A stretch of 61,669 bases of DNA, the filler included, from Sphacelaria rigidula (Eukaryota): assembly GCA_964200075.2 (NCBI GenBank). It is 7 parts of 7 records of this genome, joined end to end, with 100 filler letters (N's around TTAATTAATTAA, not from the genome) between each part and the next. Parts side by side here need not be neighbours in the genome. Positions count along the whole stretch, not along the records: positions 52,947 to 61,669 come from CAXNAA020010272.1; 6 more parts are not named here. The stretch is one strand, 5' to 3'. The notes beneath the pieces are model-generated. The model did no database searches, was not told where the DNA came from, and saw only the letters and a list, made by a program, of their open reading frames with translations. Every line of letters begins with the position of its first letter. The stretch's first letter is position 1. Positions 5,016 to 61,669 of the stretch are shown piece by piece. A program made the position numbers and the translations under genes.

Positions 5016-8000
5016 AATATCGGGGTAAACAGCGAAGTACTTTCGGAAAAATTCGGCGATGACTACCCTTTGCTCGTCGACGTCGTCAACTCGCTGCTCT
5101 TCGATGTGAGTCGCTCGAATTCTGGTGTTGCAAACTGTTACAAGCTGGGTCGGACAAGAACTCGGGATTCGCCAATATCGCGACGCGGAGCTAACCTTCC
5201 GAGTAAGAACCTGAAATTTTTAGTTTTGACGCGCGATTGACAAAGTACTCGCTGACACATGTCTTGACACCCCAAGCTCCCCCCCTCATTTTATTGGTCG
5301 AGATACGACCGACAAGTAGAATTGACCGTTTGCTTGGTCGGTCTTATCTCGCCCCCCCCCCAAGAAAAAACTCGGGGTTTCAAGACATGCGTCGGCGAGG
5401 ACCGGGCCGATCACGGGTCAGAATTCCAGGTCCCAAGTCGACAAGGTTGACTCCTCGTGGTGACTTTTTGGCAATGTAATCTATTGTCCAGGGTGTGGAT
5501 TTTTGCATATATTGTTCCGAAATTGCTCCTGATACAAAACTACATACTCCGAAATATACAACAGGGAATAAAGTATTTCGGCTTTTAGTTTCGAACGACG
5601 ATGAGTCACAGAATGAGACATTCACCGTGAGACATTCACCGTTTGTTTCGCATGGGGATCAATACGCTCAGGAAGTAGTCAAATTCGACATCATTATTTT
5701 TTATCAAGAATTCCAGGAGAGCCAAGACAAGAACCCGATCACGTATAAATTGCGAAAACGGAGACGCGAGTGTAAACACACTATGATATTGCACTGGTAA
5801 CAACAGCTGCAGCCAGTCCATCCACGTTATTCCTCGTCCGTACAATCGACCTTTTCTTCGACAACGATGACTTACCCGCCAGGTATTGGACGGAGGGTAC
5901 CGCGTGTTGCCTGTGCAACGTCGCACACGGTAGACATGGGTCATCAGCAAACTCGAACATACATCGTTGGGGCCTGTATTGTGCGGAGAACTGCCTGCCG
6001 ATTCGTGGGCGCAAAAGGCTGTGTATTGTGTGTAAATACGTGCAACATTTGCTGCACGCACACCAACCCCTTGACCATGAAGCGTCCAGGATCTTCACTG
6101 CAGGAGCAGTCGTTTTTCAAAACTCGAGTCACGACGTTGTGCACTGGTGTATTATTTGGTCTCGAATGGACTGCTTTGCGGTCAAAGGATCTACATGAGG
6201 AGTGATGCAATGATGGTATCGAAATGAAACTAGTTCGGCACTCCCTTCCTTCTCGCGAGCGCACAGTCAATGAAAGTCAGATAGCAGGTTGTCGGGACGA
6301 GAATAGATGGGAACACTGTGAAAAACTACTGTGTTGGCCTTCCTCCTGTGTGACCCCGGCTGGTGCGCCCACGTATACCGAAAGGTGTAGATTGGCGTCC
6401 ATAAAAGATGGGATGACAACACACACACAACACACACACTGTAGGCATCTTTTGTAGGATCTTTTTTCACATATTTTGCTCCGGATCCTCACGATACCAC
6501 GAGATACAGGACGTTGCACCGCTGTCGATATTCCATCGTTTATTTGCTGACGTCGGCCGCTCAGTATCTGAACACACTAGTATCTGTGCATGTTCTCGTG
6601 TGCGCGTTCGTCCCCTTGTACTCTGCAGAATCGATTGCAATTATCCAAGGGAGAGGGGGATACGATGTGGTACAAGCTAGTTCAAGAAGAGAAGGCCAAG
6701 AAGCTCACGGGACTCACGTAAGTCCACAGTCTAAGGAAAGTGAGCACAGACGGCCTAGCTCACTTCTGGGCACCCGAAGGAGTACCCGCATGGGGGCTAG
6801 TTCTGCCAGTGGAAGGCCACCACAGCACGTCAACCTCCTGCTGTCTTCGTGTAGGTATTGGGGAGCAAACTGCACAGTGTGGTGTCCATCATATGGTCGC
6901 ATTTTCCCGTGAAGTAATAAAACAAGTGAACATTGTCCCAACACATTCGTGTCTTCGGGCTGTTGACACATGTCATTATTTATGTTTTCGTTTTTTTCGA
7001 TCTGTCGTTCGACTCTTGCGCCCTCGTGTATGTGTGTGCGAGCGGCAGGCCAGAGCAAATGATGATCTACCAAGTTATTGAAAAGGCTGGAAACACAGGC
7101 ATCTGGACGCGTGACATCAAAACAACCACGAACGTGAACCAGGTATGTCTTTTGCCGCAGGAAGGGATCTCACGCCCGCGTCCGGGTACGAATACTGTAC
7201 GATCAATACACCTCGTGCTACAGTTGCAACAGCTTGCTGGTGAAAATATCGGGAGGTTAAGAATTCCCCCCCCCCGCCCCTCCCCGGTCCTATGGTGAGA
7301 CACCCATAGAGGCCGTCGGTCAACCATGGCTGTCTCTGGAAGTGGCGATACCAGAGAATGAAGCAACTCACTGGAGGCTGCCATCCAAATACAAGATAAT
7401 CAGTACGCTTCGGGTCAAGGGATCGTAGCAGGATGCAGCTTACCCTTCTTACGACACGTCGAACACATCACCGCGCTTCGCGCTTGGTGGCTGATAGCGA
7501 GCCTGGTCCGGCGGAAACCCGACGTGCTCCGTCCCGGCTCTGTAGGGGTGCGAGGTCGATGGTCCTATGACTATGGCATGCAAGATCATGAGTACACCCC
7601 CCCTCCCCGGTCCTCTGTCCTGCTTTTGTTGTGCTTGCACCTTGCAGACTACACTCACCAAGACTCTCAAGTCGTTGGAAGGGCGACATCTGATCAAGCC
7701 TACGAAGTCGGTGGTCAGCAAAAGCAAGAAATTCTACATGCTCTACGAACTAAGTACGTTTTCAGTCCTCCTGCGCTAAGCCGCTGCCACGTTGATCCCC
7801 AAACGGCGGCCTATCACCACAGTGATTGACTCGCTAGCTCCCTACCTCCCGATTCGAATCGTGTTCGTACGAAATATACCCAACACGCAAGTTCAGCCTG
7901 GGATGCGTTTTCAGTGACGTCGTGTTGGGCGTGTTGTTACCGCCAGCCTTTCGAGAGCACTTCCGCCCCGGGTGTTGACGTCTCCAAGCCGACTTCAGGA

Positions 8001-8726: not shown

Positions 8727-8826
8727 NNNNNNNNNNNNNNNNNNNNNNNNNNNNNNNNNNNNNNNNNNNNTTAATTAATTAANNNNNNNNNNNNNNNNNN
8801 NNNNNNNNNNNNNNNNNNNNNNNNNN
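8727..8826. other. Artificial contig spacer (44 N + TTAATTAATTAA + 44 N)
   Basis: An identical 100-nt structure occurs six times; the 12-mer has stops in all six frames. Confidence 0.98.
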
Positions 8827-17551: not shown

Positions 17552-17651
17552 NNNNNNNNNNNNNNNNNNNNNNNNNNNNNNNNNNNNNNNNNNNNTTAAT
17601 TAATTAANNNNNNNNNNNNNNNNNNNNNNNNNNNNNNNNNNNNNNNNNNNN
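17552..17651. other. Artificial contig spacer
   Basis: 44 N + TTAATTAATTAA + 44 N. Confidence 0.98.
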
Positions 17652-26375: not shown

Positions 26376-26475
26376 NNNNNNNNNNNNNNNNNNNNNNNNN
26401 NNNNNNNNNNNNNNNNNNNTTAATTAATTAANNNNNNNNNNNNNNNNNNNNNNNNNNNNNNNNNNNNNNNNNNNN
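26376..26475. other. Artificial contig spacer
   Basis: 44 N + TTAATTAATTAA + 44 N. Confidence 0.98.
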
Positions 26476-35199: not shown

Positions 35200-35299
35200 N
35201 NNNNNNNNNNNNNNNNNNNNNNNNNNNNNNNNNNNNNNNNNNNTTAATTAATTAANNNNNNNNNNNNNNNNNNNNNNNNNNNNNNNNNNNNNNNNNNNN
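35200..35299. other. Artificial contig spacer
   Basis: 44 N + TTAATTAATTAA + 44 N. Confidence 0.98.
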
Positions 35300-44023: not shown

Positions 44024-44123
44024 NNNNNNNNNNNNNNNNNNNNNNNNNNNNNNNNNNNNNNNNNNNNTTAATTAATTAANNNNNNNNNNNNNNNNNNNNN
44101 NNNNNNNNNNNNNNNNNNNNNNN
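44024..44123. other. Artificial contig spacer
   Basis: 44 N + TTAATTAATTAA + 44 N. Confidence 0.98.
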
Positions 44124-44421: not shown

Positions 44422-46897
44422 CCGCGCGACATTGTGGACCATGCGAGCAGCACCGTACGCCCCTCTGGCAGCCCGGGTAAATCTATCAGGCCTAGGAGCA
44501 TTTCCCGTGAGGATGCCGGGGAGATCTGGGTCAGGCGCTAGCTGCCCTGTAACTCCTGGGGCACGTTGCACTCGCGGAGTTGTAATGTCAGGGCGCTTCA
44601 GCGCAAGACCTAAGTCGTGCCAAAAAGAGGGGGGTAAAAGAAGGAGGGGGAACGGAGGACATTGCGGTGTGTTCAGGCGTTGAACAATTCCATACCTCTG
44701 GGTGACAGAGCACTACATCCATTTCAGTATTGATGGAAGTAAGGTACACACAAGGTCAGTTCGACAAAAGTCCTCGGTATGGGATGGTGTCCGGGTTGTA
44801 TGCGCGCAGCGTCCACGGGTTGCCGCGCGGAGCGGACTAGTTCCGATCGTCATGGAGAATAACCATATGGTTCAGTTTTTGTGTTGGAACTCAAGCTTTT
44901 CAAATCATCACTACAATACACCAGGATAAATTGTGTTTTGGGACTGAAATTCTGTTAATGGCACTCCCCACAAAAACAGGTTACTAACCCCGTATCACCA
45001 TAACAACACAAGGTTGCGGAGAAATGATTATTGTGAATAACATGATTATTTCACCAGTAACCATCATATGAATATGACGAGGAGCCTTTGTAAACAGCCC
45101 TACCGAGTATTTTTTCTGTTTAAACGTCTCCCCTCCCCCCGAAACAACAACTTCCCCTCGCAAACGCGATTTCTTGCACCACTTGCCTGATGAAGGCTGC
45201 CATGGGATGGACGCGCGACAGATGGGACAGAGCAGCGCTGACCCTGAGGAGTTGTTGAGATACTGCTGAAGACAGGCTGCGTGAAAGAAGTGCTCGCACT
45301 CTAGTCTGGTTGTACAAACAAACGGCCGCGGGCACAGACAGCAATACAAGCGGAACACACGAGCTCGCTTTGAAAAAAAGTTCACAGCACATTTTGTGTG
45401 AACAAATGACGAGCGTGCGCATCATACCACATCATACTAGGGGCACATATGCTGTTGTCAAGGCCACATTTTCGAGCTCAACATCGGGGTGCTCATCAAG
45501 AGTTCGGCATTCGATAGATGCACAATTGTACGAAAATCACATTGGTCAACTTGGATTTGGGCGGGGAATGCATGGTAGCGCAGAGGATGAGAAAACAACC
45601 GTCCACGGGGGTGGTTTCTACCGTATATTTGGAAGGGTGGTATTCACCGTTTCGGCCCATAACGTGCGAACGGTAATACTTTTGGACGCCATCAAGGTAT
45701 TTTTAGGATACCTCGAACATGAAGATGAAGATACACAACACAGGTCTCCACCCGGGATTTGATGCACGCATCTCTCACCAAAACCTCATCACACGAGCGG
45801 TATCTAGCGTTTTGGTCCCTCACACACGAAGGGCGATGTACGTAAACACACCAAGCCTTTGACAGAGCGTGTGAAATATCAAGTATTAATCTCCGACCCT
45901 CTGTTTCTCCCCACCCGGGGATGAAACAGCTCAATCCCCTCCCTGAACACGGTCGGAGGTGTTATCCACCGTTGCGGCTGGTTTCATACGCATTTACACA
46001 CGAATGGGAATGCCCCCGAACACGCAGGGGGCATCGTCATCGCGTATCACCCCTACTCTACTGCTTTGTGGCCCCCTCGTCCCCCCATCCCTTTTCCCGG
46101 GGGACGAAATCAACGCATCCCCTCCTCGAACAGTCGCCGCGGGAACCAGGTGTTATCCGGACGTTTTGGTCATTTGCGGCTAGACAATAATCAATCTCAA
46201 CACGTGACTGGTACTCATAGCGAGTCTACAATCTATTCTAACTTATGGTACTTCGCTTTTCCCCCCCCCTTAACGGGACGACAGACCCTCCGGGGGAGAT
46301 GTCGTCGCATACCCCCCCTCGCTCTCCAAGTGTGCTCAGGGGTTACACCCTACCTTCAGGACTTGTCGAACACGAATGACGATGCCCCTGCACACGCGGG
46401 AGACATCGTTACAACGTGTCACCCTACCCTACTGGTGCATGACCTTTCCCGCACCTCACCCTCCGTAGCGGGGATGAAATCAAGGCATCCCCTCCCCGAA
46501 CAATCTCAGCGGGAAAGGCGGTGTCATCCAACGTGTTAGCCATTTGCAGTCGGACAACAACGAGCCTGCAACACTTGACCGGTACCGATTGAACGCCTAC
46601 AGCCCACCCTAATTGATGGCATCTTCCGTTTTCCTGCATGGGACAACACAACCCCCGGGGTAGATAGCATTCCACCCCCTTTGTAAGCGCGCACGGAGAT
46701 AATAGCCTGCCGCCAGCCCAATCCGCATCCCACCTTTTGGCCGAGGTCATGGTCTTGAGACAAATAGCGCATGCCTCATCCTCGGGCATCGCTTTCAGCT
46801 CTTGCTCAGTCGCGTCTGGGAAAGCAATATCCATCTCCTTCGCCAGGACGACCTTGCGCGCCTGCTCACGGCGAAACGCACACACATTCACGCACTC
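44422..46897 (-). CDS. RING-H2 E3 ubiquitin ligase (HRD1/AMFR-like), exons 46734-46897, 45187-45305 and probably 44422-44609
   Basis: Spliced MDIAFPDATEQEL...DEACAICLKTMTSAK|RLECEHFFHAACLQQYL...CPICR is a C3H2C3 RING-H2. The preceding FPDATxxEL motif is typical of the Hrd1/gp78 family. Confidence 0.8.
45905..46562 (+). repeat. Degenerate direct repeats in the RING-gene intron
   Basis: GGGGAYGAAA...ATCCCCTCC..GAACA at ~45917, 46100 and 46470. The latter two extend to GGTGTYATCC..CGT..T.G.CATTTGC.G...GACAA. Confidence 0.65.
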
Positions 46898-49975: not shown

Positions 49976-52846
49976 GGGGGGGCATTGGTCGGCATATTAC
50001 ACCATACCGAAATGTGTAACCAACAGTCCGGTGGAGTTGGGAAGGATATCGAGCCCTATTCCCAACACTCCCGTATGGTCCGGTCGGGTATTACCCGTTA
50101 TATACTTGTGAGAAACCGGAAATCGGAAGTTCAGCACTTCCCTTCCTCCTGGCTTGCTCCCTGTGGGGGTAGGCCGAGGACCGCTAGTGATCTTAAACCA
50201 CACACAAAGACCACCAAACCAACGAAGGCGGAGCAGGGAAAGGTAAGGGACACGAGCCCGAGCATCGTGTCGACGTGGACTCTGAGTTTGGGGCGACAGA
50301 AGATGCAGGGGTCGTGAGACACAGCGTAACTCATATCGCACTAAATTTTCCAGATACCACCCCCTTCCCCCGATTGCCCATACTGGGGTGGGCAGAGTCC
50401 ACCTGTGATCTTAGACCACAATCCAAAGATCATTCAACGACGGTGGAGATACGAGTCCGAACCTCGTATCGACGGGGAGACCAAGTTAGGAAGATAAGAG
50501 GCACCACGATCACGAGAGTGGCGTGTGCTTCGTTTCGGAACAACTTAGCGGCGGCATGCAGCTGAACGCTAAAGCACCGGTCTGGACACCGGGGCTATGC
50601 AGCAGCGGAGAGCGCAGTGGGGACAGATGGAGGGGCTGCACATCGCGTGGGTACGCACACCAGGAGCAAGGAAGGAGTAGAGTCGGAAAGAGCAGGAGAG
50701 TTGCACCTGCCTGTGAAAAAAGACAGGCACCGGGTTGGCAATAGCCAGAGAGTCCAAAACGCGATAAAAATCAAGCAAATAAACAAGAGCAGGAAAAAGA
50801 GGAGGAGGGACCGGGCGAGGCGGAGGCGTGCTAGGAAAGCAGCACGAGTAGCCCGGGCGAGACAGCGGAGTCGACTTGTCAAGGTAGTCACTTACAATGT
50901 CAGAACTCTAGCTGTGAAAGGGGCCAATGGATGGGGGCGAGACTACAGCGTCTTGTACGAGGCCGCGAGACCTAACATCTCGGTGGTAGGACTACAGGAG
51001 ACACGAAGGGCGGGGCGAACAGACCGCACAGCAGCAGGGTTCAGAGTCTTCTGCTGTGGGAGCGAGTCAGGTGGGCAACACGGTGTGGGTATAGCCGTGA
51101 AAGAGTCGATTTGCAATAACGCCACCTATACCACCGAGTACGTTGACGAGCGCCTCATGACAATGCGGTTTGAAATATCGGGACAGAGCGGAGCGATCAA
51201 TTTCGTAGCTGCGTATGCACCAACTGAAGTCGCCAAGAACGAAACGAAACAAGCGTTCTGGGATGGGCTTGGCGATCTGGTACAGCGAATCCCGTCGAAG
51301 GAATGTGTGTATGTTTTGATCGATGCCAACGCGCGGACGGGGGACAAAGTAGGAGAGGTCTTAGAGGACGACGGGGTCCTAGGCGCCTATGGACGTGATA
51401 AGCTGAACGATAACGGCAAACTTCTGCTAACTTTCGCAATCGAGAACAAACTAGCCATCACGAACACCTTCTTCAGCACGCGCAAAGGCGGATTCTCGCA
51501 CACATACAACGGTGTGGTGGGGAATCGCATGAGCGACTTCAAGCGCAAGACTACATTCTTACCCAGCAGGCACACCGAGGTAGAGTGCGCAACGTAGTCG
51601 TACACCCCCAACCCGCACCCCCGACTGAAGCGGACTCGGACCACAACATGGTGATGGCCACTGTCGACCTCGGTAGCCGCATTGCCCACAACCGCCAAGT
51701 ACGCACCAAGTCGAAGCAGCGGCAATTCAGTCGACAGCAGCTGCAGTGGCAAGGTGGCACGTGACCGAGAGGTTCCTACAAAACCTCGCCGAGCAAAAAT
51801 ATCAACCAACCACCACCGCACCGGCGGCCGCGAAGGTGTTTACCGAAGCTATCCTCGAAGCAGCGCAGACAGTTTTCCCGGAAGAAGCACGGATACCACG
51901 TATGCCGGAATGGTGTGAAAACCCCGGCACGAGAGCAACAGTGGAAGGAGCCCTCGCCAAACGACGGGAGGCACGCCAACTGATGAAGCATCACCGGACC
52001 CCAGCATCGTGGAAAGCACTCATGGCCGCGTGTAAAAACGTGCGTACAGCAATCGATGACGGCATATATGCAAATCTGGAGAGGTATATGGCAAGGCTAG
52101 AGGTTATCTACAAGGATCGCGACATGAGAGGCCTGTACAAACACCTCAAGAGATCGGTGGGTCTTGGTGGAAGACAATCCGGGGGGCAGCACTTCATAAA
52201 GGACGAGAACGGCGTCCTACTGAGGAACAAAATTGCCATCCTTGAACGGTGGGCGAAATTTTTCCGCACCCTGCTCAACGCCAAATTGCCCACGCTGAAC
52301 CCAGCCATCATCGAGGAGGTGAAGCAGCGACCGGCAGCGTCAACCACCGGGGATTCAGTTCCGCTCAGGGCAGCACCAACACTGGAGGAAACTAGACGAG
52401 CAGTCCGGGGGATGGACAACTGGAAAGCGCCAGGACACGACTCCCTCCCTGTGGAACTACTCAAGATCGATGGCCGCGATGAACTCATCGTCCTCGAACG
52501 CTTCCATACCATTCTCGTCGAGGTGTGGGACGGAGGGGAGGTTCTGCAGGAGTGGAAAGATGCAACCATCAAGGTGCTGTACAAGAAATTGGACCGGTCC
52601 AGCTGCAATAACTACAGGGGCACCTCTCTGGTATCGCACGCAGGGAAAGTGCTCGTGAAGATAGTGGCTAACCGCCTCAGCGACTACTGCGAAACGCACG
52701 GGACATTACCGGAGGAACAATGCGGCTTCCGACCTAACCGATCCACCGTCGACATGCTGTTCGTAGTGCGCCGACTCCAGGAGCTGGGACGGCGGCGAAA
52801 AATACCGCTGTACATGTTTTTCGTCGACCTCCAGAAGGCATATGAC
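49976..52846 (+). mobile_element. Non-LTR retrotransposon (RTE-like LINE): 5' region, AP endonuclease and N-terminal reverse transcriptase, cut by the contig end
   Basis: APE motifs TYNVRTL, GLQETR, DANAR, NDNG, TNTFF and SDHNMV. RT motifs KAPGxD, NYRGx[14 protein letters not shown] and FVDLQKAYD. No separate ORF1 is seen. The 5' boundary is approximate. Confidence 0.92.
50617..52846 (+). pseudogene. Frameshifted APE-RT polyprotein ORF
   Basis: The frame breaks near 51550 (KR|DYILT expected) and near 51730-51745, where a linker segment also appears to be missing. Confidence 0.8.
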
Positions 52847-52946
52847 NNNNNNNNNNNNNNNNNNNNNNNNNNNNNNNNNNNNNNNNNNNNTTAATTAATT
52901 AANNNNNNNNNNNNNNNNNNNNNNNNNNNNNNNNNNNNNNNNNNNN
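52847..52946. other. Artificial contig spacer
   Basis: 44 N + TTAATTAATTAA + 44 N. Confidence 0.98.
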
Positions 52947-52974
52947 ACGGACTCTACGGTCGAGCGACACTCAC

Positions 52975-55900
52975 GTTGCTGTGTTACTCCTCGTGCCAGC
53001 GCGGATGTCGGCCCATGTCAACGAGTAGGTTCCGTTACATGACATGGTGACTGCCACACCTAGCTCCGTCATCACACAGTCATTGGGTACCGCAGGGTCC
53101 TGTACAGTCACCTGGGTGAGGTCTACATTCCCGCTGTTTGCAACCTGATCGTTCATACGCCATTGACGAGACCGCCGTCGTAAGTTGACGTGACGGGCTT
53201 GGCAAAGGGTGCGATACGGGTTAGAGAGATGGCATGTTGATCGAATATTGGAACGATGGGTGAAGTAGATGCTGAGCACGTCGGTGCTCTCGTTGTCAGG
53301 GTTCTAAGACTCTTCAGTGCAAACGAAAAGGCGTGGCGAGTAAGCGCGGCGTCAATACTTGAGGAGATGTTTTCGTCTAGTGTGACCAATCCGCCGCGTA
53401 CTGGACGACGGCTTAGACGTTGAATGGCGGTGTATTGTGCCGTTAAAGACGGTGATTTTTAGTGTCTCCCTTGAAAACTGAACATTCGGAGACTCTGCAC
53501 ATGACTGTTCAGGAATCCTCCGAGCACGGGGCCCACCGGTACCTGGATTTCGTACAGAATTTTCTCCGATTTGTCCGCGTAGTCCGCCATCCCGTTCTCC
53601 CCGTCCTCCCACTCGCTGTCATACACTGGCAAACGGCCGCACACAAAAGTCTTGAGTTCAAGAAATAAACAAGAGGCCGAAGAGTCAGCTGGGGGCGGCG
53701 CTGCTCATAAAATCTCGCGTTCTACCCTGGCATTTCATTGTAAACGAATGACGAGTGGTATCGATCCGATCGCATTCGACAGCGCGCTGTTCTGTAGGTG
53801 ACGAAAATGATTCACGGATAAGCGCCCACCGAGGTGACTGTATACTTACATGCACCTACTTCGTTGCTCACTTCCTGTCCATTAGCATGCGCTTCGATAG
53901 TAGAGTTCAATATTCCCCCAGTGCTCTTCGATCGACGGGTCTGTATTCCCCCCGCATTGTCGTTTGTGCCATTATAGAGGTGACTGTTGGGGTAGACCAC
54001 TGCAACTTACCTATTTCGATCTGCGGATTCCGCGCCAAATCGTTCATGCATGTGCTTGACTCGATAAGAAGTTCACCAGTCCCCGCGGTAGCATTTGCTG
54101 TAGCGGTGCTGGACACAGACCCCGCATTGATTTCCGCTTGAGTCAGCTGCAACGTGAGACACGGAAACACCAACGAAACAACGCAGAGTCCGCACACGAT
54201 CAGATGTGGTCGAATCAGCGTTGGGAAAAACCCACCTCGGGCCCGCTACCCGACGAAACCGTCATACTCAGCGAAAACACCGCTCGTATGATCTGCCTCT
54301 TCACCTGTCGAGAGGCCGTGCATGTGTGTATTTCCCCCACAGCCAGCACCAATGATAACGCCACATCCTCGCACGTGACAGCGCTGCTTGTATCCGACAC
54401 ACCGATGGCGTGAAGCGTCACCGTACCTTCGTTGGTTACTACTATAGTGTAGTCAACGACTTCTCCTTTGTCCGGAAACGTGCTCGAATCTGAGTCCACC
54501 CACACTCCTGTTTCGACTGCACACACGAATCGACGCACGGGTACGGGAGTGAGTGGACACACGCCAGGGATTCCCAGCCCTTGGGCATGCGGACGAGCAC
54601 GAGGGGCCAATACACGGTGCTATCTACTGAAGTAGTTCCCTACCTATGCCCATCAAGACCTCACGAGGGAGGTCAACCGAAGATGCTGCTACATCTCCGG
54701 TGGCCTCGACGCCAGCAAGAGAGCGGGATGTCACGTTCGCCGACAGGTCCATCTCGCCGAGATCAATATCATCTTGATCGATCTGTCGTCGGCGGTACAA
54801 ATAAAGGTCCAAACACTCTACTAGTAAGTGCGACTCAAAAGGCAACTCTTGTTAGGTAAAGTGAAAGTGAGTGCTGAGCCCATTTCCACTACCTTTGACG
54901 TTGTCGACCTGAAACATTCGATTTGTTTTTTCACCGCCCCTGCAAAAGCACGCGTTCCCCATACGCTTTTGTGGGCGCCAGTGATCACAGAGCAGACTTC
55001 GTAGCCCAAGGGAAACGAGGGTACTCGAAGATGGCACATGCTAGAGTTACCCTGTATATGACCCTCAAATACTACATAGCCACGCTCGCAGGGGTGTTAT
55101 GCATGAATGTGAGCAGTAGTAGTTAACTAGTACCCCTCTCCCGGTGGGATCGCTACTGTACGCTTAGACCCAACAGCCATCATCTGTGATTGCATGACAA
55201 TATTGAGTAGGTGAGCAAACGCACAGAAGATTGCAACAGCTGAGCGATCAGCTACGAAGGTGACCAGTTGGTCTCTTAGTAGCACCCTGACCTGGTCATT
55301 GAGAGAGTGTCCTCACCGCCACCACATGGACGCGGTCACCACAAAAGCCTCTTCGAAAAGACCAGAGTCACACTCCATGGGGAAGGAGGGTTGGCGGTAC
55401 TGTGGAGGTAGCCTGCTGAATGAATGAGCCTCACCAAATGTCTAGAGATGACGAATATTGAATTCTCTGTTCCACAAACTAACACAAGCAACAACGCAGG
55501 TGTACACTCAGAACAAGGATTGGAGCTCACCAGAGTAGTAACTTCACATCTGGCCTCGGCACCGGGCGCGAGTTCATCACTGCAGTTCACGCACTGGTTG
55601 TCCATCTCTTCGTCGATGATGCAAATGCTGTAGAGGGTTGTCGTTCCATCATTCAAAATGCTGTATGTACGACGGATCGTCTCTCCAACGTTCACCAAGC
55701 CGTCCCCTTCCGTACCATCAATCCACGTCCCAGATATACCTGTCGCACACATTGCACAGTAGTGATAAACAAAGGTTGTTCAGATATGAACTGGAGACTC
55801 TCGAAAGCACTTCGCGAGGTTGTTCCACATACTCATCATGTATCGCCAATATACTACTGCAGGGACTGCATATCCGTTGCTCGAAACACAACTAACTTCG

Positions 55901-58900
55901 AAGCACGCCACATGCCTCGCGGAAGCGGTAGATATTCTCAATGGCCGATCCAGGTATATCTCCTCACCAAGAGTGATGCTTGCAGTGCCAGTAAGCAGTA
56001 CTCTATCCTCACTCGTGTCACCCACAGAGACACCCGTGGGGCTCAATGAGGTCACAATGCCCGTGTTGCTCTTGCTGCCACTGTCCATATCGGCTTGATC
56101 GACTGTGTACGTGCCAGTACACGTCATGATCGGTTCTTGTGGGCATAGCTCTGCCGAAGGAAAATGCAACCGGGCATCAAAGGCCATAGTGACCAAGCGA
56201 AGCACATGTTGATTCCCGGGCTGTGCTACAATACATACATGAGACGAGATTCGTCGTAAGTCTAGTGTATGCCAAACGTACAGGAAGCATAGACAAACAA
56301 AGGATACATGGAATCGATTGCACCCCCGAGTAGTTACGTTCCGACCCCCAACAGCATACACTTAACGGTGCAAACACCCGACGTATACCTGTGGCGACGC
56401 ATGTAGACCCGCTGATTGTGTCCGTGACTTCCACATCCCTGAGACAGGTGTTTCCTGTGTTTCTAACCACCATCTCGTACGAGATCTCGTCTCCCGCGTT
56501 GCAGATGCCATCGGCGCCCGTGTCTAGCGCTCCAGTGGTCTCTGCATCCACATCGACGAACAAAACACATGTGTGCACGTGTGTGTGTTGGTATCATCGA
56601 AGCATACGGTCGGAACTTGCGCAATATACCTACGGTGTACTCTACTACCAGGATCGGGGAACTGTATGTGGGAGCGCGAGGATCTTCTGCAGTGGTGCAG
56701 TCGGGCAGATCCGCACAAAACCTCACCCATCGTCATCGTTGATACGGGCTCCAGCACTTGCCAAACGGTGGCGTCGCCGGAGACGTCGCCAAGCGGACTG
56801 ATTGCCCCAGCTACCACGGAGTTGCTCACACCGGCGGCGTCGAGGTCGTCCTGTTGCACCTGGGTTAAGGAAATAATCATCGTAACACAAATCTTAGGGA
56901 TTTAGCGGCAGCCTCAGATGGATGTGGGCTGCAGTTAAACTCTTGAATACTACCACGAATATGAAATGTTGACCGTGGAACCGTGTCGTGACCCTTCTCG
57001 TCATCCGGCAGGCCAAACAATCGCGACAGCGTGCTTCACGGCCAGCACGAAGCGCGCACAAGGCCATCGGACAAATATCGAGTAGGTCAAGCAGGTGACA
57101 CGGAAAAAGAACAAGTGGGTCCTGCGAGGCGAAGTGGAGGTGTAAGAGCCGGCCTCCACCACACGACTTGCAAGCCCCGCCTGCCTACATCCAACAAGGT
57201 AAGCACGGGATGAACCTATGTCTATTGGTCCAACGATCAAGTGTCGTCTACTTTGATCATTAATGTTTCAATAGCCCACTCTGAGGTAACGAGGAAAACT
57301 TTCCGCCGGTGCATACCCATGGCGGGGGGGCACGAGGTACGAAGGGCACGTACTCGTACTTTGTCAACAACGTGCCTCGCCCTCGTGCTCGCTCACCTCG
57401 TACACGGCCAAACATCTCGTTGTTGCTTCAGGGAAAAGTTTCAGTCCCTCCAGGATAGGGTCGCAGAAAATCACCGCTTCATCGTACGAGCTGCGGGTGT
57501 GGAAAGAGCAAGGAAACATACCGTCATATTTCGTACCCTGGCGACCTCTGGTCGTGGCGACACTATGACGGGTTACCCCCAACAAGCAACTGCCATGCTC
57601 AGAGTCGAACTTCCTCCCGGATTAACACACGAAAAAGGCCTGGCCCACAAGCCAACCATGGTGACAGGGACAAACAGCACACCCCGTGAGTGCCTGTCGG
57701 TAGCTCGAATACCAACATCGGGGAACAGGAGACTACGATACGCGAAGTGAAAAGCCCGAGGGAAGCCGGCGACCCAATACCTGGCTTCCTGGGCCATCAA
57801 GAGAGCACTAGATACGTTGATACCCGTCAGCGTTGTGGTGCCCTCGTTGATGAGCTTGATGATGTACTGGATTGTGTCGCCGGCAGAGTCACCCGCGACA
57901 GAATCCGAGTCTCGCATCGTCGCATTCACTGACGTAGCAACACCCGCCGTTCGGTGGAGTGTTTGCGTGGCTGTGGAGGAGGTCGTGACCGCGTCTCCCA
58001 AAGGCAGGTAACCATCCACCCTTCGACAACAAATAAATGCCAGTGGGGGAAGCATTTTCGAAGTCGTAGGTACGTCAAGTATGTGAGCACGACTACTAAC
58101 CCGAGCTCCCACAGCGGGTGACCGAACCAGTAAGGGCTTGTAACGGCACAACTTAGATCATTCCCATCGGTGTACGAAAGATGACGGCGACGACCGGATT
58201 CCACGAGTAGCAGCTTTGTCTCAGAACAACAACATTTCTTGTAGGTTACCGCAATCGCGATTGGACGCGGGAATCACATGCCGATTCATAGCGGTACCTA
58301 AACCAACCGATTCCCGTGTCCGTGGCAGAACAACCAAGCTTTGAGAAGCCGCAGAGCCTCGATATCAACAAGCGTGCAGGCTGAAAGTTCCGCACATACC
58401 CCCAATCATCATACGGACTTGGTTTAGCTAGGATCCGGCGCCTATTGTCCGCGAACAGCAGATGACGTTCATCGGTAGGGTCTACATACAGAGAGTCAAA
58501 CCCGGTACGACTTTTATCGCGGGTCTCAGCCAATGAGGTGGTAATCGATATGAGAAGAACAATGGAGCAACATCGCAAAGACGGATCCGGAGATGACGTT
58601 AGAGCTTGTGGCATGGCGACCCAACACCGAGTGAACCGTGGGCCTCGAGATATCAATGTCGGTGGGCGCGGATCATGGCCTCCAAGCTGGTTGCGCCATC
58701 AATCTGTCACCAAACTAAGGCGAAGGCAGACATCTACACAGTGCTTCTACGCCCACTAGACGTGGAACGCGCGTCCTACCTCGTCGTGCTGCTGACCGAG
58801 CCGGCGTCGATATCGTCCTGAGATATCGTATAATCAGGAGTGCAGGTAAAGGTCTTGCCAACAAGCCACGGGTCGGGAATACTCTCGGGACATCCCATGC

Positions 58901-61118
58901 CGTAGGTCCCTGACGTTCGCAAAAGAGTCAGACAAACAACGTAGGGACCCGTCGGAAACGCTACCCGGTACCCCAGTGGGATCTCAGCTGTCGCGTCGCA
59001 AAACATCAGCAACTGAAGCCGCGATGGGTGCGGCGAGTTTGTTCCTCTGAGAGATCCACAAAATATCTGACAACAGCACCGTCGAACCGCGCCGGCGACG
59101 TCCACTCAATGGGCCCCATGATCTCAATCCTAGAACACCGTCGTCATCAAGGCGTTGTCGAATCCCGCCAGGCGCAAGACAAATAGGTACTCCGTCACTC
59201 AGATGGAGCATGTTGACTCACCGTCATCATGCCTGAACAGTTCGTTGGATATGCTGCCACCCGTGATCTCCACATTCCCAGTGTTTTTCGAAGTCATATT
59301 GAACTGGATCGTCTCACCCATTGCGGCCAGGCCACTCACATCGTCGACCGGATGATGACTCGAGCTTTGCGTCACCTCGACCCCGGATTCCTGAAGGCGC
59401 AGTCGCGGGCACACGAGTTATGCTCCACGCTACAACAAGAGCCCATATAACCTGCTCGTCACTAGACTGCCAAGAGAATGCCTATGGTCTAGTTGTTCGT
59501 AAGGCACCCGGTATGTGTTCGCATCGCTTGCAGGGAGGAACATGCTATCGGAAAAGGTACGCCGTCAACCGAACACACTCCTCTACTCAAACCTTGCTCG
59601 ATATACTCGACCCCGTTGAACGTCGCTCCCTCGCCTGCCACACGATATTTGACATCCCAAGCAAATACTACATCAGTACTGCATAGCCCACGGACAGCAA
59701 GCAACATGCTACCGTGTCCATTCCCGACCACACACGCCGCAGATGACCCCAGTCTGCCCGTGACAGTCGAGATGCCCTCCACTCGTGTCGCAACATACGC
59801 ACTGTCACCTGATTCAGAGGAACGCTAGAGTCTGCGTCATCAACAACGGGCTCGTTGCTCAACTCATCGACATCGCTCTCGTGAAATGCTTTCACTACAG
59901 CTGAATTTGTCTTCACTCCAGCATTAATCTGAGTCAAACGCAAGCATCGATCGGCACGGTGGTGAGAACGAATGGGCAGCGCTTATTGTACGCCTTCCAT
60001 ACGCCGCCAAGTGCCTGCACATATGATCAGAAACATACATCGAACATCACAAGTCTGCGCTGAAAGGAAAAACAAGTACGTCGAGAGATACACTTCCCGA
60101 GTGTGCGCCTCGCGGTCACTGCGCTTGTCCAAAGGCGTATTTATCGGTGCTCCAGGTTTCCACTGCCGAAAGACATCTCACCTCTGCTTGAGACACTTTG
60201 CCCGTCGCTATGCACGTAAGAGATGCGGCAGGGGATAGACCCTCGTCAGGATAAGCGGCTAGCCCCGAGACACTCCCGGAGACCTCGCCAACAACAAAAT
60301 CGCCCCCGACGTCGCCACAGGTGACGGATACCCCGTTCGCTGCCAGACTTTCCACCGCTATCTCGATACCGTACAGGCTCAACAGGCCGTTGTTGGTGAT
60401 AGTATAAGTGTAGCCGACCTCGTCGTCGGTCGTAGACGCAGTGTCTCCAGCGTAGGTCGGCGTCACCGAGAGCCGAACGCTGCCGACCTGAAATCAACAC
60501 AATGGGGAAACGGGAAGAGCATGACCATCGGCAGAGCCTGGGGTGTAAGGAGCGGCTGTCTCACACACGACTGCATTGCAGTTTACACGTGCACACTCTA
60601 CCCTACAAGCGGAACTTGTCGCGGTATGCGATTGTCTTGCGGGATCGCTACCCATCACGGACTTGACAATGACAAGCGTGTGGAACAGAAATATGCACGC
60701 CTTGTCTCCTCCGATGCACGTTTCTTGCCTCGGGTGTGCACACCCCTGGCCGTCACAAAACACCCCCGTCGGTATTGAGTGATACCCTTTCTACACATCA
60801 TCAACCATATACCACGAACCCCCAGCCTGGTGGCCTTCGCAAGGTGCACAATGTGTTCAGATCATGCTTCTTTGTATTTTACCTGGTGCAAATCCACCAC
60901 CTCCGCATCTGAGTCCGACACCTCATAGCCGTACACGTCCTTGGCGGAAGCGGTCACAGTGCTGTCTCGCTCGAGGTTGTTGACGTCGTCGGCTGTGACG
61001 GCGTAGACGGCGGAGCAAGTGAAACCATCGTCGGCGACCAGGGCCTCATCCAACACAACCGCGTTCCCGGATACAGTTGCGTCCACGTTGCATTGCAGAG
61101 TCGACTCGCCGCTGTCAC
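52975..61118 (-). CDS. Large repeat protein with tandem DUF11/DUF7507-like Ig-fold domains; 16 internal exons, ~904 aa, both ends off the contig
   Basis: Exons in transcript order: 60883-61118, 60182-60487, 59809-59928, 59222-59390, 58780-58909, 57781-58020, 57397-57490, 56727-56859, 56389-56541, 55968-56150, 55531-55739, 54644-54782, 54305-54516, 54011-54146, 53543-53625, 52975-53144. All are GT-AG, phase-compatible and stop-free. Repeat consensus: G[DE]xIxYxIxxxNxGxxxLxxIxVxD...C...L.......C...YxVxQxDxDxGxxxNxAxV. Confidence 0.88.
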
Positions 61119-61669
61119 CTGAACGCGTGTTGGATGGGAACAAGCGGGAGAGTGCACATTGATGGTCGAGCTTGCTTGAGTTACAGAATCAAGTGAAGAT
61201 ATCTTGGTTTGACTGCTGCACCAGCAGTGCTTCGCCTATCATAAGGCACTTCCGCGGTATTCCAGGCCGCGGTTTCGCGGGCCCAATCCAGCCCTCATCG
61301 AGAGTCACAAAATTTGTTGCCGGACATTTGGTGGAGACGCCAAAACGGAGATTGTCTTTGCGAAATAACCGCCCTTTCACCTGCGAATACATAATTCACA
61401 TCCAACATTGTCAATCAGGGGTATTCATAACAGTTGAAAAAAGGCAACCTGGAAACCGCATCTACGCTGTCGAATTCGTGAGGGTAGGCATGACGTTCAT
61501 CAAATCTTGTGCCAAGTCAGGCTCCCCAAACGCAAAGTTTTGAAGAAGAGGTACAATCACCTTATCGCCATCAAGAGTTGGGGGGGGGGGGGGGGGGTCG
61601 CTTGTTTTTTTTTCTTTGTTAGTTTTACCCTGTCCCACCCACCCCTTTCGAAAACCGCCACCTTCCCAC

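Follow-up and report, generated by a model that had tools for sequence, protein, structure and literature searches.

In prokaryotes, DUF11 and DUF7507 domains form the stalks of fibrillar surface adhesins, and isopeptide bonds give these domains thermal and proteolytic stability, as described in the survey that defined the CLIPPER_2 family (10.1101/2025.04.25.650565). In the Pfam example of DUF7507 (CLIPPER_2, PF24346), the isopeptide triad consists of Lys 72, Asp 112, and Asn 152 (PMC12617251, Table 1); not all members of the related DUF11 family (CLIPPER, PF01345) possess such a triad, according to the survey (10.1101/2025.04.25.650565). The survey also set eukaryotic matches to CLIPPER_2 aside as probable contamination. 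Here, we describe a locus on the minus strand of the last contig (CAXNAA020010272.1) in a stretch of 61,669 bases from the Sphacelaria rigidula assembly GCA_964200075.2; this whole stretch is called the window. The locus is a fragment of an intron-rich nuclear gene of an alga, most likely a brown alga or a close relative, and it encodes the middle of a long chain of DUF7507 domains that are probably of prokaryotic ancestry and would lack isopeptide bonds.

In the accessible parts of the literature, no description of a DUF7507/DUF11 family in brown algae or in any other eukaryote was found, beyond one table line that gives the annotation 'DUF11 domain-containing' for a diatom gene, Phatr3_J48356 of Phaeodactylum tricornutum (PMC12113381). 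The main text of a preprint on brown-algal genomes (10.1101/2024.02.19.579948) contains neither 'DUF' nor 'adhesin', and the other literature matches turned out to be DUF111x look-alikes. The domain family itself is already known, and the algal orthologue described below is unannotated in the public record. What is new here is a eukaryotic, intron-bearing DUF7507 array without the isopeptide triad.

Results

A truncated, intron-rich gene encodes tandem DUF7507 domains

Between positions 61118 and 52975 of the window, 16 exons and 15 introns on the minus strand were found to splice into a single stop-free frame of 903 amino acids (aa). A first-pass annotation of the window had proposed an uninterrupted 16-exon frame with identical ends and about 904 aa, and this model was borne out. 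All 15 introns start with GT and end with AG; the donors are mostly GTGAG or GTAAG, and the lengths range from 127 to 759 nucleotides (nt). Read-through leads to an in-frame stop codon in 14 of the introns and, in the one exception (185 nt), to a frameshift. The G+C content is 55.9% in the exons, 63.9% at third codon positions, and 52.3% in the introns. Exon 13 could equally well begin at another in-phase acceptor, which lies 9 nt further downstream. The least certain exon is exon 15 (83 nt), which was placed by frame, splice signals, and a match to an own-repeat hidden Markov model (HMM).

The first-pass view that the gene is intact did not hold, because it is cut at both ends of the contig (52947-61669). 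Exon 1 starts at 61118 directly after a CAG acceptor (phase 1), and exon 16 ends at 52975 directly before a GTGAGT donor, such that the start, the stop, any signal peptide, and any anchor lie outside the contig. An HMM scan revealed no upstream exon in the remaining ~550 bases and no domain match in 61189-61669.

The spliced product contains seven full repeats (R1-R7), preceded by the C-terminal half of an eighth (R0). The period is 114-146 aa, and N-x-G anchors occur at residues 104, 250, 372, 497, 611, 726, and 844. About eight tandem units of ~110-140 aa had been predicted; the repeats proved to be real, but there are seven full units and one half, with a somewhat different size range. The two peptides that had been quoted as examples were recovered in R4 and R6. 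The product has a pI of 4.05, with 142 Asp and Glu residues versus 12 Lys residues, is rich in Thr, Ser, and Val, and contains seven NxS/T sequons.

Pfam was run on the open reading frames (ORFs) of 14 exons; the ORFs of exons 7 and 15 were outside that set. DUF7507 was found on 11 of the 14 exon-bearing ORFs at E <= 0.0031 (best E 4.5e-11), and five of them, each covering only part of a domain, reached the gathering score of 27 bits (27.2-43.1 bits). The three negative ORFs were those of exons 3, 8, and 12, which code for the last strands only. DUF11 was a weaker co-match on five of the 14 ORFs, below its own Pfam cut-off. A bacterial-weighted HMM, built from 500 bacterial domains and eight algal units, recognised eight domains in the 903-aa product, with scores of 26-95 bits, and a domain HMM scan gave no matches elsewhere in the window. 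With a profile built from seven exon translations, 1025 proteins among the 8000 candidates scored were recovered at E <= 0.001, with up to 782 bits. PF24346 was present in all 120 matches listed, and all organism-named matches among these were bacterial, mostly Actinomycetota. A search with a single exon led to an archaeal DUF7507 protein of Methanosarcina, and the ESM Atlas neighbours were DUF7507 clusters recorded as 100% Bacteria. The DUF11/DUF7507 identity assigned at first pass is supported by the Pfam, profile, HMM, and Atlas results.

A structure was predicted with AlphaFold 2 (AF2) for exon 2, which encodes a domain without its last strands. The model is a seven-strand beta-sandwich with a predicted local distance difference test (pLDDT) score of 82.2. 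The folding of single repeats had been suggested as a check, and its outcome was divided: the beta-sandwich was obtained, but a Foldseek search with this model returned nothing at E <= 0.001. In VIA-align, the crystal structure of CLIPPER (DUF11), 9ifr_A, ranked second (Z 6.3, root-mean-square deviation 2.9, 87 residues), level with generic beta-sandwiches. The predicted model is therefore consistent with the expected fold, a compact Ig-like (CnaA-like) beta-sandwich of about seven strands, but non-discriminating. A sequence search of the PDB with the exon profile gave no match at E <= 1.

Sequencing runs were also compared with the contig. Three of these runs, presumed to be RNA, showed no spliced joint, and they neither support nor contradict the junctions. 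The first run yielded one 151-letter piece with 90% identity, within exon 1, the second yielded two pieces, one of which extends into intron-like sequence of a similar copy, and in the third no piece matched the contig. In one DNA run, 278 pieces were found on the gene contig (104 at >=99% identity, 66 at 95-99%, and 108 at 90-95%), and the depth of exon bins exceeded that of intron bins several-fold. This pattern points to a sample with several similar copies of the gene, with several alleles, or with related strains.

A collinear relative in Discosporangium and conserved splice sites

The closest named relative is CAM9848254.1, an unnamed protein product (partial, 1185 aa) of Discosporangium mesarthrocarpum (Phaeophyceae), which fits the first-pass guess of a brown alga. 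Pfam recognised nine DUF7507 stretches in this protein (E 8.7e-120, 392.5 bits) and one DUF11 domain. Residues 7-666 of the model align with residues 495-1183 of CAM9848254.1 at 38.3% identity over 694 columns (E 3e-120), whereas off-register alignments of the two reached only 25-29%. Because the collinear alignment is better than the off-register ones, the repeat order was fixed before the two species diverged; the gene is old. The motif PDPWLVG of exon 5 also occurs in the Discosporangium protein. From the combined fragments, a minimum of about 13 repeats can be deduced.

When exon 2 was compared by phmmer with 1.84 billion representatives, 144 matches were obtained at E <= 0.001. These were of two kinds, namely giant multi-repeat proteins and short ORFs with a single stretch that matches exon 2 over its entire length, with 30-83% identity. 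In 63 short ORFs of public assemblies, taken from this and another search, similarity to exon 2 ends at the splice sites. The residue preceding the exon was Q in 24 of 24 cases, as results from reading through a CAG acceptor, and the residue following it was V in 60 of 61 cases, usually followed by R or S, as results from reading through a GT[AG]AG donor. Many distinct homologues have both splice sites, which is strong and independent evidence that the gene model is correct and that the exon is under purifying selection. The first-pass argument that the introns exclude bacterial contamination is upheld by the 15 GT-AG introns and by the conservation of the exon-2 splice sites in these 63 homologous ORFs. 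A metagenome scan with the exon-2 alignment yielded one locus, with 36% identity and long uninterrupted, bacterial-looking ORFs.

The algal domains lack a complete isopeptide triad and retain a Cys pair

For quantification of the triad, domains were aligned to a common HMM and near-full domains were counted; a triad was scored as complete with either Asp or Glu in the catalytic column and either Asn or Asp in the third one. The comparison set of other long proteins, which are mostly nameless and are taken to be prokaryotic on account of their long uninterrupted ORFs, contributed 2235 near-full domains, with Lys in 1999, Asp in 1958, Asn/Asp in 2172, the complete triad in 1974, and the conserved Cys in 1577. 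In the seven near-full domains of the window model, Lys was never present, Asp and Asn/Asp were present in four each, no triad was complete, and the conserved Cys was found in all seven. The eight near-full domains of CAM9848254.1, one of which is cut before the Asn column, had Lys in three, Asp in six, and Asn/Asp in two; again, no triad was complete and all eight had the conserved Cys.

A second Cys lies 10-35 residues upstream of the conserved Cys in all 15 algal domains, in line with the first-pass remark that each unit has at least two Cys. As judged from these residues, the algal domains, with their incomplete Lys-Asp-Asn triads, cannot form an intramolecular isopeptide bond, and the conserved Cys pair would be expected to form one disulfide per domain. 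The Cys pair is an inherited family feature, and the complete loss of the triad is the new point. Because the triad is not universal in DUF11, we read the repeats of the window as a triad-less variant of the family and do not exclude them from DUF7507.

Shared introns and the history of the repeats

Introns occur at the same domain column and in the same phase in several repeats: at column 9/10 (phase 1) in R4, R5, R6, and R7, at column 79/80 (phase 0) in R3, R5, and R6, and at column 3/4 (phase 0) in R1 and R2. Six further intron positions are each unique to one repeat. The shared columns and phases favour a duplication of intron-containing units. Identity from repeat to repeat within the gene is 13-33%, whereas single repeats match their best bacterial domains at 34-51%.

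A FastTree phylogeny was calculated from 412 domains and 119 columns, with every near-full algal domain and, from each other protein, two near-full domains chosen at random. It placed 13 of the 15 algal repeats, along with a single nameless tip, in one clade with a Shimodaira-Hasegawa (SH)-like support of 0.94. The two outlying algal domains are the DUF11-like and the truncated ones of Discosporangium. The repeat phylogeny that had been proposed as a check accordingly grouped most of the algal repeats, but not all 15 as a strictly monophyletic set. Amplification within the alga, a further first-pass proposal, is supported in part by the shared intron columns and phases and by the clade of 13, but it has to be set against the matches of repeats to bacterial domains at up to 47-51%. 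Since the family is otherwise bacterial and archaeal, a prokaryotic origin would be the most economical and most likely reading.

The nameless tip in the clade is one domain of the NCBI protein P0264 (1592 aa, on a 72-kb contig). In P0264, the triad is partly kept, with Lys in five, Asp in six, and Asn/Asp in six of nine domains. P0264 may be either prokaryotic and closely related or eukaryotic and poor in introns.

Layout of the window

The window is made up of seven pieces of ~8.72 kb, divided by six identical linkers (Table 1). Because the pieces are separate contigs, no feature has a genomic neighbour on another piece, and nothing before position 52847 adjoins the gene. Exon-sized matches to an RNA polymerase III subunit and to a RING-H2 finger on two other contigs fit a eukaryotic nuclear source. 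The end of the sixth contig carries a fragment of a non-LTR (non-long terminal repeat) retrotransposon of the long interspersed nuclear element (LINE) type. An Rfam search of the whole window gave zero matches and thus no RNA taxonomic marker. Close to the end of the gene contig lies a low-complexity run of about 21 C, and a high-depth contig of one sequencing run touches only this tract, with no match to the gene itself.

Table 1. Positions of the exons and of other features in the window (i-E, independent E-value).
Feature	Position	Strand	Length	Content and matches
Exon 1 acceptor	CAG ending 61119	-		Phase 1; preceding exon beyond contig end
Exon 1	60883..61118	-	236 nt	C-terminal half of R0; Pfam DUF7507 E 0.0031, profile positions 60-104
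Exon 2	60182..60487	-	306 nt, 102 aa	Most of R1; both boundaries in phase 0; DUF7507 28.8 bits
Exon 3	59809..59928	-	120 nt	Last strands of R1 and acidic linker; own-repeat HMM i-E 4.7e-5; no Pfam match
Exon 4	59222..59390	-	169 nt	N-terminal half of R2; Pfam DUF7507 E 6.1e-5
Exon 5	58780..58909	-	130 nt	C-terminal half of R2; Pfam DUF7507 E 2.7e-5
Exon 6	57781..58020	-	240 nt	Linker and N-terminal half of R3; Pfam DUF7507 E 3.2e-4
Exon 7	57397..57490	-	94 nt	Middle of R3 with Cys pair; own-repeat HMM weak, i-E 0.0038
Exon 8	56727..56859	-	133 nt	Last strands of R3 and linker; bacterial-weighted HMM i-E 9e-4; no Pfam DUF7507 match
Exon 9	56389..56541	-	153 nt	N-terminal half of R4; Pfam DUF7507 35.1 bits
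Exon 10	55968..56150	-	183 nt	C-terminal half of R4 and linker; Pfam DUF7507 27.2 bits
Exon 11	55531..55739	-	209 nt	R5 to the conserved intron at domain column 79/80; Pfam DUF7507 E 7.4e-5
Exon 12	54644..54782	-	139 nt	Last strands of R5 and linker; bacterial-weighted HMM i-E 0.0028; no Pfam match
Exon 13	54305..54516	-	212 nt	R6 to column 79/80; best DUF7507 match, E 4.5e-11, 43.1 bits
Exon 14	54011..54146	-	136 nt	Last strands of R6 and linker; Pfam DUF7507 E 0.0026
Exon 15	53543..53625	-	83 nt	First strands of R7; own-repeat HMM i-E 6.5e-5; no bacterial-weighted HMM match
Exon 16	52975..53144	-	170 nt	Rest of R7; DUF7507 33.6 bits; phase-2 GTGAGT donor 28 bases before contig end
Gene-bearing contig	52947..61669		8723 bases	Joined to an unrelated contig by linker 52847-52946 (N44-TTAATTAATTAA-N44)
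C run	61580-61600	- (G on plus)	~21	Low-complexity repeat near contig end
Linkers	8727-8826, 17552-17651, 26376-26475, 35200-35299, 44024-44123, 52847-52946			N44-TTAATTAATTAA-N44, identical
LINE-type fragment	50566-52846	+		ORF with endonuclease/exonuclease/phosphatase match (weak, E 4e-4), then RVT_1 ORF (E 9.1e-9) running into the linker
Rpc34 (RNA polymerase III subunit)	6930-7295	+		Exon-sized match, E 3e-8; different contig
RING-H2 finger	44987-45421	-		Exon-sized match, E 4.7e-6; different contig

Discussion

We propose that a prokaryotic DUF7507 module gained spliceosomal introns, and that duplication of some or all of the array followed the gain of introns. The algal domains have lost the Lys of the triad, and with it the isopeptide bond, and the conserved Cys pair would provide one disulfide per domain. 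The protein would be secreted and may act as a stiff spacer or structural rod, either in the extracellular matrix or cell wall or in adhesion. The case for secretion consists of the family, the Cys pairs, the acidic composition, and the glycosylation sequons, and it is this combination of a stalk family with a Cys pair, acidity, and sequons that leads us to read the product as a secreted, disulfide-stabilised rod.

Several observations weigh against this proposal. Both protein ends are missing in the window gene as well as in CAM9848254.1, so that a signal peptide, an anchor, or a head domain would lie beyond the known sequence. The assignment to a brown alga by sequence leans on one named homologue with 38% identity and on the label 'algae metagenome' of one sequencing run that contains the same DNA, and the DUF11-annotated diatom gene (PMC12113381) may mean that the family is wider in ochrophytes than brown algae. 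The proteins with which the triad was compared are mostly nameless, and their prokaryotic origin is an assumption. The fold match does not discriminate, as 74 chains had Z >= 5 and none reached 8. Strict monophyly of the 15 algal repeats was not found, their common ancestor spanning 167 other tips in the tree, and the clade of 13 includes one nameless tip and rests on 119 columns. A scan of prokaryote genomes revealed no donor, but only four weak, short matches (36-58% over 31-57 residues). Lastly, identities of up to 47-51% to bacterial domains, over 83-98 aa, may indicate that the array arrived already repeated.

The last point leads to a different history, in which the array was taken up whole from a prokaryote, already diverged, and the shared introns reflect parallel insertion at similar contexts. 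The repeats are indeed less similar to each other than to bacterial domains, and their order was already fixed in the Discosporangium orthologue. However, identical intron positions and phases in four, three, and two repeats, and the well-supported clade of 13 of the 15 algal repeats, speak for duplication within the gene, and we regard uptake of the whole array as rather unlikely. It is improbable that no prokaryotic transfer took place at all and that the gene belongs to an old, vertically inherited Ig-like family of ochrophytes or of a wider range of eukaryotes. The diatom gene annotated as DUF11 domain-containing (PMC12113381), the deep divergence of the algal gene, and its many old introns would suit such a family. 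On the other side, the organism-named profile matches listed and the taxon-recorded Atlas clusters are all bacterial, one single-exon match is archaeal, and the survey reports DUF7507 in bacteria and archaea and dismisses eukaryotic matches as contamination (10.1101/2025.04.25.650565). The overwhelmingly prokaryotic distribution of the family could also point to bacterial contamination or an assembly chimera in the present case, but to this explanation we assign practically no probability. It is refuted by the intron structure, as the domains are broken by 15 GT-AG introns that each carry a stop or a frameshift; moreover, homologues share the splice sites, and the same DNA is present in five sequencing runs from two studies.

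With regard to function, the array could be the stalk of a larger, membrane-anchored adhesin or receptor, with the head and the anchor on the missing flanks and with a role in recognition or adhesion, not a purely structural one in the matrix. In prokaryotes, DUF11/DUF7507 arrays are found in the middle of proteins, beside adhesive and sorting domains, as the survey describes (10.1101/2025.04.25.650565). Both the window gene and CAM9848254.1 are partial, and the latter adds a DUF11 domain and about four repeats upstream. Nevertheless, no other domain type is present in ~1400 aa of combined non-overlapping sequence, and archaeal proteins often consist of such repeats only, according to the same survey (10.1101/2025.04.25.650565). 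An anchored adhesin or receptor is the main alternative and a serious possibility, although we do not favour it. A decaying pseudogene or unexpressed relic is, in contrast, very improbable. No RNA evidence was obtained and the triad residues have decayed, but the 903-aa frame is open over 16 exons, exon 2 is kept in 63 ORFs at the identities given above while the flanking intron sequence is not, and the Cys pair and the core motifs are present in all repeats. The reading that we prefer, and regard as probable, is that of a gene fragment for the middle of a secreted DUF7507 rod.

On a broader scale, we tentatively suggest that brown algae keep an old and diversified family of prokaryotic stalk modules, which may have been taken up before their radiation, intronised, and partly re-amplified, with a switch from isopeptide to disulfide bonds, and which may form rods in the matrix or in adhesion. 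To our knowledge, few protein components of the brown-algal extracellular matrix have been described, and the present locus nominates a candidate family of extracellular matrix or adhesion proteins. If this view is true, it would be the first bona fide eukaryotic CLIPPER_2 family, in an independently multicellular lineage. The conserved introns and the orthologue in a named brown alga show that genuine eukaryotic members of DUF7507 exist. The locus is no evidence for isopeptide bonds in eukaryotes; the data speak, if anything, against them. The same fold with the triad (88% of the other domains) and without it (15 of 15 algal domains), with the Cys pair kept, offers a natural comparison, by which the contribution of the isopeptide bond to stability becomes testable.

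Among the known systems, the diatom gene Phatr3_J48356 resembles the locus as an ochrophyte nuclear gene annotated with the sister domain, and it is known from the annotation line alone (PMC12113381). CAM9848254.1 is much closer: it is a collinear orthologue with the same repeat order, shared motifs, complete triads in none of eight domains, and the conserved Cys in all eight. It differs in that it reaches ~494 aa further upstream, ends ~237 aa earlier, and is deeply diverged, and it is known here as a protein alone. The DUF11/CLIPPER domain (PF01345, 9IFR) is a related CnaA-like E-set domain and is represented once in the Discosporangium orthologue. However, the scores of the window exons for DUF11 are below the cut-off, the fold match does not rise above generic beta-sandwiches, and the isopeptide triad is lacking. 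The best agreement is with DUF7507/CLIPPER_2 (PF24346), with which the algal repeats share the sequence family, the core motifs, the conserved Cys, the tandem arrangement, and the predicted beta-sandwich. In contrast to that family as hitherto described, the algal gene is eukaryotic and intron-rich, its product is very acidic and poor in Lys, and its domains have the isopeptide Lys in none of seven cases and the full triad in none of seven, compared with 1974 of 2235 domains in the other proteins.

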